A stretch of 64,000 nucleotides of DNA, from NCBI RefSeq assembly GCF_048403405.1, contig NZ_CP183129.1; one strand, written 5' to 3'. The position numbers are program-made. Numbering within the stretch: the stretch's first letter is position 1; each line of letters begins with the position of its first letter. The DNA comes from Escherichia coli (GTDB lineage: Bacteria > Pseudomonadota > Gammaproteobacteria > Enterobacterales > Enterobacteriaceae). Shown piece by piece: positions 16,137 through 19,100 of the stretch.

Positions 16137-19100
16137 TTAATTCGTAAAACGTGCTACCGATCACATTAAGAAATCAGCGCTTATTTTTTCGCTCCCGGGC
16201 ATTACGCAATGAGCAGCGAACTCAGGCATACATCAAGAATAGAGAGGGATTGCAGTTTGCAGCAATCCCTCTTTGCAGACCTTTAATCCGTTGACTATAG
16301 GCGCTAACATAGCGCCTCATTTTTTTGCGGGTGATGATATGCGTGTGTTACTGGCACCGATGGAGGGAGTGCTTGACTCTCTGGTGCGTGAATTGCTGAC
16401 CGAAGTTAACGACTACGATCTGTGCATCACCGAGTTTGTCCGCGTGGTGGATCAACTGCTGCCAATAAAAGTCTTTCATCGCATTTGCCCTGAGCTACAA
16501 AATGCCAGCCGGACACCTTCCGGTACGCTGGTGCGCGTGCAGTTGTTAGGTCAGTTCCCACAATGGCTGGCAGAGAACGCCGCCCGTGCGGTGGAGTTAG
16601 GTTCCTGGGGCGTGGATCTCAATTGCGGCTGCCCGTCGAAAACGGTTAACGGTAGCGGCGGTGGGGCGACGTTACTCAAAGATCCTGAACTCATCTACCA
16701 GGGGGCAAAAGCGATGCGTGAAGCTGTACCAGCGCATTTGCCCGTCAGCGTAAAAGTGCGTCTGGGCTGGGACAGCGGTGAGAAGAAATTTGAAATCGCC
16801 GACGCGGTGCAACAGGCTGGCGCTACGGAGCTGGTGGTGCATGGGCGGACGAAAGAGCAGGGTTACCGCGCGGAGCATATTGACTGGCAGGCGATTGGCG
16901 ATATTCGCCAGCGGCTGAATATTCCGGTGATTGCCAACGGTGAAATCTGGGACTGGCAGAGCGCGCAACAATGCATGGCGATCAGCGGCTGCGACGCAGT
17001 GATGATTGGTCGCGGGGCGCTCAATATTCCCAACCTGAGCCGTGTGGTAAAATATAACGAACCGCGAATGCCGTGGCCGGAGGTGGTTGCTTTGCTGCAA
17101 AAATATACCCGTCTGGAAAAGCAGGGCGATACCGGGTTATATCACGTAGCGCGGATTAAACAGTGGTTGAGTTATTTGCGTAAAGAATACGATGAAGCAA
17201 CGGAATTATTTCAGCATGTTCGGGTGTTGAATAATTCCCATGATATTGCAAGGGCTATTCAGGCAATTGATATCGAGAAACTCTAAGAAACCATAGTGAT
17301 GTTTTTTGACAATGTGTTAGCTCTTTATCAATAGGCCGCACGGTTGTTTGGTGGCGTCAAAATCGCCGAGGCGTTCCCTGAAGGCCGGGGCAGCCCACAT
17401 GGATGTGGGCTGAGGGCGCGTTTTACAGGGATGTTACCTCGCGCCCGACCCGGTAGCCGTAAGGGATAAGCCGAGGGCACCGCGCAGCGGCGATTTTGTT
17501 CGCCAGAGCCCGGGGGTGCAGGGGGCGGCGGCGATTGGTCGCCCCCTGCGCGCTCCTTGCGCCAGTGATTATATGAAGCAATGCACATGACAGGAGCGCA
17601 ACAGGATGAGAGACTGAAATATTCTCGTTATTTTCGGATCTGATGACATTAATTAATTTTAAAATATCATCTTAAATACGCCAGTCACCACCAGTAGCCC
17701 AATCAGGAAAATAATCAATACAGCCCAGAGTATAATTTTCATTGGCGTTCCTTTATTTGTGAGTGCTGAATAAGTATAGGAAAAAACGAAGCCCTTTGCC
17801 GCTATCCATAAACGATTAAGATAAATCGGAAGATATCATTCACTTAGTGTATATTTTTCTGGATATGTCGTTTTATTGCCACTGATGTATTGCCACGCGA
17901 AACTAAAAAATATATCGCAACACACGGTAATCTCCGCGCACCTTTTCTTACCTGATTATTCCCCCATGAATCGTGATTTTTTTTATCCAGCCATCGCCTG
18001 TTTTCCGCTGTTACTGATGCTGACCGGGTGTGCGCCTATGCATGAAACCCGCCAGGCGTTAAGCCAGCAAACGCCCGCTGCACAAGTTGACACCGCATTA
18101 CCCACGGCGCTGAAAAATGGTTGGCCAGACAGCCAATGGTGGCTGGAGTATCACGATAATCAACTCACTTCCTTAATTAATAACGCACTACAGAGCGCAC
18201 CGGATATGCAGGTGGCTGAACAGCGCATTCAGCTGGCTGAAGCCCAGGCGAAGGCAATTGCCACTCAGGATGGTCCGCAGATCGACTTTTCTGCGGATAT
18301 GGAGCGGCAAAAAATGTCTGCAGAAGGGTTAATGGGGCCGTTTGCTCTGAACGATCCTGCCGCAGGTACGACCGGTCCGTGGTACACCAACGGTACTTTT
18401 GGCTTAACGGCGGGCTGGCATCTCGATATCTGGGGAAAGAATCGGGCGGAGGTTACTGCTCGCCTGGGTACGGTTAAAGCACGGGCGGCGGAACGCGAGC
18501 AAACCCGCCAATTGCTGGCTGGCAGCGTAGCCCGTCTGTACTGGGAGTGGCAAACCCAGGCGGCGTTAAACACTGTCTTACAGCAAATCGAAAAAGAGCA
18601 GAACACCATTATCGCCACCGATCGCCAGCTATATCAGAACGGGATTACTTCTTCAGTTGAAGGTGTGGAAACCGATATTAATGCCAGCAAAACCCGGCAG
18701 CAGCTCAACGATGTCGCGGGGAAAATGAAAATTATTGAGGCACGGTTAAGCGCACTTACAAATCACCAGACAAAGGCATTGAAGCTTAATCCGGTCGCGT
18801 TGCCGAAAGTGGCAAGCCAGCTTCCTGATGAACTGGGGTACTCCTTACTGGCCCGGCGGGCAGATTTGCAGGCGGCGCACTGGTACGTTGAGTCATCGTT
18901 AAGCACTATTGATGCGGCAAAAGCGGCATTTTATCCTGACATCAACCTGATGGCCTTCCTGCAACAGGATGCGTTGCACTTAAGCGATCTGTTCCGTCAT
19001 TCCGCGCAGCAAATGGGCGTTACGGCAGGCCTGACGCTACCCATTTTCGATAGTGGTCGTCTTAACGCCAACCTCGATATCGCAAAAGCCGAAAGCAACT

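Follow-up and report, generated by a model that had tools for sequence, protein, structure and literature searches.

yohP in an Escherichia coli chromosome: a known gene for a 27-residue inner-membrane protein, its expression signals and the repeat at its 3' side

YohP and its closest described counterparts

The gene yohP has been annotated in Escherichia coli since the small-protein surveys of 2008-2010, and its product has become a model substrate in work on post-translational targeting by SRP and on the targeting of mRNA. Hemm 2008, Hemm 2010 and Fontaine 2011, which PMC7549839 cites, are reportedly the papers in which yohP was discovered or surveyed with other small proteins. In a full-text search of the literature, yohP or its product appears in 22 papers, three of which carry YohP in their titles.

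Comparable with YohP are YncL, YohO and YkgR, which belong to the sigma-S- or stress-induced small membrane proteins of enterobacteria. These, too, are single transmembrane helices of fewer than 50 amino acids that are induced by stress or in stationary phase, and YncL, like YohP, depolarises the membrane and condenses the nucleoid (PMC12542507). They are unlike YohP in that they belong to separate families having no sequence similarity to it. A different likeness is found in the type I toxins TisB, HokB, Ibs and Ldr and in antimicrobial peptides that form pores, such as magainin-2, which are also short hydrophobic helices with basic flanks, and which also dissipate the membrane potential. YohP differs from the type I toxins in that no antisense RNA partner was found for it in the searches described below and in that its effect is sublethal. 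Nor does it mimic magainin-2; rather, it counteracts, or hinders, the oligomerisation of magainin-2 (PMC12542507).

Much has been learned about how YohP is made and where it goes. With a chromosomal SPA tag in strain MG1655, it was shown to be translated from its native locus, and more of it is present in stationary phase, in minimal medium and when oxygen is limiting; the induction by SDS/EDTA and by H2O2 that had been reported earlier was not reproduced (PMC12719787). Cell fractionation and carbonate resistance identify YohP as an integral inner-membrane protein, mostly in the N-out/C-in orientation, and it forms SDS-resistant dimers for which G15 is required and G21 is not (PMC7549839). The protein is too short to be recognised co-translationally. 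Instead, SRP binds it post-translationally, and SRP and FtsY deliver it to SecYEG or YidC (PMC7549839). The yohP mRNA also localises to the membrane, independently of translation, through a signal within the coding sequence that depends on U content and on predicted stem-loops. YohP translated from mRNA at the membrane needs no SRP for its insertion, a route that becomes relevant once SRP is inhibited by (p)ppGpp (bioRxiv 10.1101/2022.11.21.517368).

The consequences of YohP production are broad. The membrane potential drops, sublethally; PspA and PspC are induced; cardiolipin and (p)ppGpp rise; membrane fluidity and global protein synthesis fall; the nucleoid is condensed; and metabolism is lowered (PMC12719787, PMC12542507). 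This route from partial depolarisation to the Psp and stringent responses has been called "metabolic silencing", and deletion of yohP increases sensitivity both to ciprofloxacin and to oxidative stress (PMC12719787, PMC12542507). Most of these effects were measured after premature expression from a plasmid, a limitation that the authors themselves give; they also report that endogenous YohP in stationary phase reaches the levels obtained from the plasmid (PMC12719787).

Put as a sequence of events, this literature suggests that the short, U-rich yohP mRNA would go to the membrane independently of translation, and that finished YohP would be released, bound by SRP/FtsY and inserted via SecYEG or YidC. 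Should (p)ppGpp inhibit SRP, insertion would proceed from the membrane-bound mRNA in an SRP-independent way. As YohP accumulates, a sublethal loss of membrane potential would call up the phage-shock response and raise cardiolipin and (p)ppGpp, and downstream of this depolarisation the nucleoid would be condensed and protein synthesis and metabolism lowered.

The yohP frame and its identity

The window analysed here is a stretch of 64,000 nucleotides from an E. coli chromosome (NCBI RefSeq assembly GCF_048403405.1, contig NZ_CP183129.1). On its minus strand (window 17659..17742), an ATG at 17742 opens a frame of 28 codons that closes with TAA at 17661..17659 and whose product is MKIILWAVLIIFLIGLLVVTGVFKMIF. 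A six-frame ORF list shows this ATG to be the earliest start available after the in-frame stop that precedes it, and it contains no other ORF of at least 20 amino acids that overlaps yohP on either strand. The peptide has a single transmembrane helix at about residues 3-23, with K2 and K24 flanking it and G15 and G21 inside it. Its GRAVY value is 2.47 over the whole peptide and 3.01 over residues 3-23, and U makes up 40.5% of the coding sequence. The features of the locus are collected in Table 1.

Table 1. Features at and around yohP, with yohO, in window coordinates
Feature	Position	Strand	Length or product	Remarks
yohP CDS	17659..17742	-	27 codons + TAA	YohP HMMs; identity to K-12 b4679
Shine-Dalgarno AAGGA	17749..17753	-		6 nt 5' of the yohP ATG
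sigma-S-type extended -10 CCTATACTTAT	17770..17780	-		TATACT hexamer 17778..17773; -13 C at 17779
mdtQ	17966..19402	+	478 aa	intact; divergent from yohP
dusC	16339..17286	+	tRNA dihydrouridine(16) synthase	convergent with yohP
dusC-yohP intergenic region (yohP 3' flank)	17287..17658		372 nt	
dispersed GC-rich repeat	core ~17340..17600		~250-300 nt	between dusC and yohP; unannotated
yohO	30899..31006	-	35 aa	small membrane protein; DNA identical to K-12 b4542

Several labels fall on this frame. The NCBIfam equivalog NF011345, "small membrane protein YohP", matches residues 1-27 of 27 at 67.3 bits against a curated cut-off of 58, and the Pfam family PF25659 (YohP) matches at 50.6 bits against a curated cut-off of 27. 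RefSeq places 'small membrane protein YohP' at exactly this position. The exact peptide, in turn, is an entry named YohP in a public protein collection, and it is found on at least 1000 contigs.

Comparison with K-12 MG1655, where yohP is b4679 (2228982..2229065), is still more direct. The coding DNA, the protein, the Shine-Dalgarno sequence, the 5' UTR and the -10 region are all identical in K-12 and in the window. Over 679 nt, the two differ by five substitutions, none of which lies in the interval from the -10 element through the stop codon; one (G at window 17802, A in K-12) is placed just 5' of the yohP -35 region, and the other four are in the 3' flank. The neighbours are also common to both, with mdtQ divergent and dusC convergent, and the same synteny has been stated in print (PMC12719787). 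A convergent dusC beside yohP is conserved in Escherichia, Atlantibacter and Citrobacter. Thus, the gene occupies the orthologous position, as judged by convergent dusC and, in Escherichia, by divergent mdtQ as well.

Nor is the locus rare. A piece of 801 nt around yohP matches many E. coli chromosomes at 100% identity, with the RefSeq yohP and mdtQ genes beneath the match. A shorter piece, of 191 nt, is present in 5422 of the 5426 complete E. coli genomes; the match spans 80% or more of the query in 5409 genomes and is 99% or more identical in 4977.

The frame is yohP proper rather than a relative of it, and hence a gene already known; nothing contradicts the identification. That it is here a real gene, conserved and translated into an inner-membrane protein of 27 residues, we regard as practically certain, with its translation and insertion taken from published work on the K-12 gene, which is identical. 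The SPA-tag result in MG1655 bears on the window because the MG1655 locus is identical to it from the -10 element to the stop codon.

The initial annotation, made from the sequence alone, had already read yohP here as a gene for a small membrane protein with a single helix. The coordinates, strand, length and peptide that it gave proved correct when the minus strand was read and translated and when the six-frame ORF list was consulted, and the name agrees with the K-12 DNA identity, the HMMs and the RefSeq label. Two of the checks that it had named, homology to known YohP and a ribosome-binding site upstream, came out positive: the first through 100% DNA identity to K-12 b4679 and the matches to NF011345 and PF25659, the second through the AAGGA 6 nt 5' of the ATG. 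It had also placed the gene, rightly, between the GC-rich element and mdtQ. Its remark that yohP was missed by the ORF track reflects the length threshold of that track, which is 60 amino acids.

A short open frame is, of course, uninformative when taken bare, because 382 ATG-started ORFs of 20-59 amino acids occur in the window. That number in the window alone gives some colour to a reading of yohP as an open frame present by chance in an AT-rich intergenic region. When these same 382 ORFs, drawn from the whole window, are ranked, yohP is the most hydrophobic of them all, and its predicted duplex with the anti-Shine-Dalgarno sequence (-5.6 kcal/mol) ranks 23rd. A joint filter, asking for GRAVY above 1.5 and for Shine-Dalgarno pairing of -4 kcal/mol or lower, is survived by two of the 382. 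These are yohP and yohO, the latter having a strong Shine-Dalgarno sequence, AAGGAG (-8.8 kcal/mol). The same two are the only annotated genes shorter than 60 amino acids in the K-12-equivalent region, so that the further claim of the initial annotation, that the window holds several functional ORFs below this length, is borne out for yohP and yohO and overstated in its "several". Recovery of yohP is therefore mainly a positive control: hydrophobicity and Shine-Dalgarno strength retrieve exactly the two annotated small membrane proteins of the window. The chance reading itself has next to no probability, with HMM scores above their cut-offs, a frame kept under synonymous-only drift, a conserved Shine-Dalgarno sequence and promoter, and published detection of the protein. 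On the YohP HMMs, the conservation of the frame across genera and the conserved -10 and Shine-Dalgarno elements, it was excluded.

The character of the peptide suggests a second alternative. In size and hydrophobicity YohP is like the TisB, Hok and Ibs toxins, and it depolarises the membrane (PMC12719787); one might suppose, then, that it belongs, as the toxin, to a type I toxin-antitoxin module that has gone unrecognised, with an antisense RNA keeping it in check. A sigma-70-like site does lie on the plus strand at 17643..17670 (ATGACA-16-TATCAT, 10 of 12 matches), from where it would fire antisense into the 3' end of yohP. Sites of this kind are at chance level, however, with one found and 1.5 expected. 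Its -10 overlaps codons 25-26 of yohP, which change in Atlantibacter and Citrobacter, and its -35 falls in the non-conserved 3' flank. Being no more than chance would give, and unconserved in other genera, the site was rejected as an antisense promoter. It was the sole candidate for an antitoxin partner at yohP; Rfam shows no antitoxin sRNA at the locus at gathering score, and PADLOC returns no match at yohP. Over-production of YohP, moreover, slows growth without being lethal, and endogenous stationary-phase levels equal those from the plasmid (PMC12719787). A toxin of this type is, in our view, very unlikely. As to structure, a search of PDB sequences returned no solved relative of YohP.

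Conservation of the peptide and of its expression signals

Homologues were sought with a degenerate DNA pattern for MKIILWAV, the first eight residues of YohP, in one genome per species. The resulting sample is restricted to loci with a conserved N-terminus, and it contains neither Salmonella nor Klebsiella. The pattern gave 24 matches, of which 17 are loci in Enterobacteriaceae (Escherichia species, Cedecea, Buttiauxella, Atlantibacter and Citrobacter) and 7 are in unrelated phyla. Those seven (Roseburia, Omnitrophica, Elusimicrobia, Piscibacillus, an archaeon and others) are ORFs unrelated to YohP, in a number near the chance expectation, and were discarded.

In every one of the 17 enterobacterial loci, the ORF is exactly 27 codons long. 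The alleles differ from that of the window at no more than 22 of 84 nucleotides. These differences amount to 13-18 synonymous codon changes, with no more than a single conservative replacement (L13I or M25A). Over the 17 loci, the variable sites are distributed 6/2/22 over codon positions 1, 2 and 3; within codons 9-27, a part that the search pattern left unconstrained, it is 5/1/17. K2, G15, G21 and K24 are invariant in all 17, and the UTRs that flank the frame diverge freely across genera. Third-position substitutions, a near-invariant peptide and divergent UTRs, when taken together, point to selection on the YohP protein. Such purifying selection is strong across the genera compared, in loci that were, as just said, preselected for their N-terminus.

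This pattern also bears on the proposal that the locus is mainly a non-coding or dual-function sRNA (STnc1330), its ORF being incidental or secondary. The proposal has a history, for the Salmonella orthologue of yohP was first listed as STnc1330, an abundant sigma-S-dependent sRNA (PMC5437024), and yohP mRNA binds the membrane independently of translation (bioRxiv 10.1101/2022.11.21.517368). It does not sit well, however, with third-position substitutions and a near-invariant peptide between UTRs that diverge freely, nor with the detection of tagged YohP both in E. coli (PMC12719787) and in Salmonella (PMC5437024). We hold this reading to be extremely unlikely. The yohP RNA may, in addition, have a regulatory role besides coding.

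The signals 5' of the frame are conserved as well. At the place equivalent to that of the AAGGA in the window, other genera have AGGA, GGGA or GAGG. Further upstream, in the 223-nt control region that yohP has in common with mdtQ, a TATACT hexamer preceded by CC sits 30 nt 5' of the yohP ATG. When the loci are aligned on the hexamer, CC-TATACT is invariant in Escherichia, Cedecea, Buttiauxella, Atlantibacter and Citrobacter, within surroundings that are unrelated, and the distance from TATACT to ATG is 30-39 nt across the five genera. Thus, the sigma-S-type -10 of yohP, CCTATACT, is unchanged across five genera of enterobacteria. A simple scan for sigma-70 promoters did not report the yohP promoter; the scan is silent here because a good -35 is absent.

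A TATACT hexamer, a C at -13 and a poor -35 are the marks of the promoter type that sigma-S prefers. The extended element CCTATACTTAT has the -10 of KCTAYRCTTAA type, the C at -13 and the weak or variable -35 by which sigma-S promoters are judged. Transcription would be expected to start from it at about 17766-17767, leaving a 5' UTR of about 24 nt. The sigma-S consensus shown for Salmonella work agrees with the TATACT, -13 C, poor -35 type (PMC5437024). In Salmonella, stationary-phase cells contain abundant YohP-3xFlag, of which almost none can be detected when rpoS is mutated (PMC5437024). From the conserved -10 element in E. coli, and from these rpoS-dependence data in Salmonella, we infer that the induction of yohP in stationary-phase E. 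coli is driven by RpoS at CCTATACT. Conservation of this element would then offer an explanation, at the level of sequence, for the published rise of YohP in E. coli in stationary phase.

The 3' flank and its repeat

On the other side of the gene, matters are less uniform. In E. coli, the 3' flank of yohP begins with about 55 nt of AT-rich sequence, followed by GC-rich hairpins at 17550..17599 and 17518..17549 that have no U-tract, and a terminator scan found no canonical intrinsic terminator within 130 nt of the yohP stop codon. Window 17500..17658 (-) was compared here with four loci from other genera (L011, L013, L025 and L008). In Buttiauxella and Cedecea, the yohP stop is followed within about 10 nt by a canonical terminator, a GC hairpin with a U-run, which E. 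coli is without. In Atlantibacter and Citrobacter, yohP and dusC are only about 40 nt apart, and a GC hairpin occupies this interval. In E. coli, the transcript might end at the GC-rich hairpins, or be stabilised by them, or might instead be terminated by Rho.

The GC-rich element between dusC and yohP is a dispersed repeat; complete E. coli genomes contain a median of 3 copies of it and at most 8-9. Because the yohP-dusC gap in Atlantibacter and Citrobacter is so short (~40 nt), the element is taken to be an insertion. Its orientation at this site is not fixed. Approximately 3400 complete E. coli genomes carry it as in the window and in K-12, while approximately 2000, including O157:H7 and Ecol_AZ162, carry it at the same site in the opposite orientation. 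The outgroup E. whittamii also has it in the opposite orientation between dusC and yohP. When window 17287..17658 was compared with the corresponding loci (L029, 1116..1502, and L023, 8044..8445), homology between the two orientation forms was seen to stop exactly at the yohP stop codon.

Parts of the repeat resemble a described RNA. The Rfam family RF01731, TwoAYGGAY, gives a sub-threshold match at 17357..17496 (+), at 30.2 bits against a gathering score of 43, and a match at 28.4 bits, against the same gathering score of 43, in the alternative-orientation locus L029 (1278..1417, -). Here, a perfect hairpin, CAGCCCACAU-GG-AUGUGGGCUG, lies at 17391..17412 with an exact AUGGAU loop, and the loop of a second hairpin reads AGGGAU. 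The strand of the match is dusC-sense in the window and yohP-sense in the genomes with the alternative orientation. A separate Rfam match, to AgvB at 17576..17636, reached 22.9 bits against a gathering score of 56 and was dismissed as chance.

As no canonical terminator precedes the repeat in E. coli, the yohP transcript may carry repeat RNA. The 3' flank of yohP would then be dimorphic in more than its DNA, with a structured RNA lying sense or antisense in the yohP transcript according to lineage, and with 3' end formation, stability or regulation, of yohP or of dusC, differing accordingly between lineages. We offer this tentatively and think it improbable. If true, it would mean that the making of a stress peptide, YohP, or the expression of dusC is subject to lineage-specific 3' end formation, stability or regulation, and the dimorphism in repeat orientation is the only item in this analysis that possibly merits separate follow-up.

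A minor difference from K-12 concerns the divergent neighbour. The mdtQ gene, which RefSeq labels here 'multidrug resistance outer membrane protein MdtQ', is intact in the window, whereas in K-12 MG1655 it is the pseudogene b2139.
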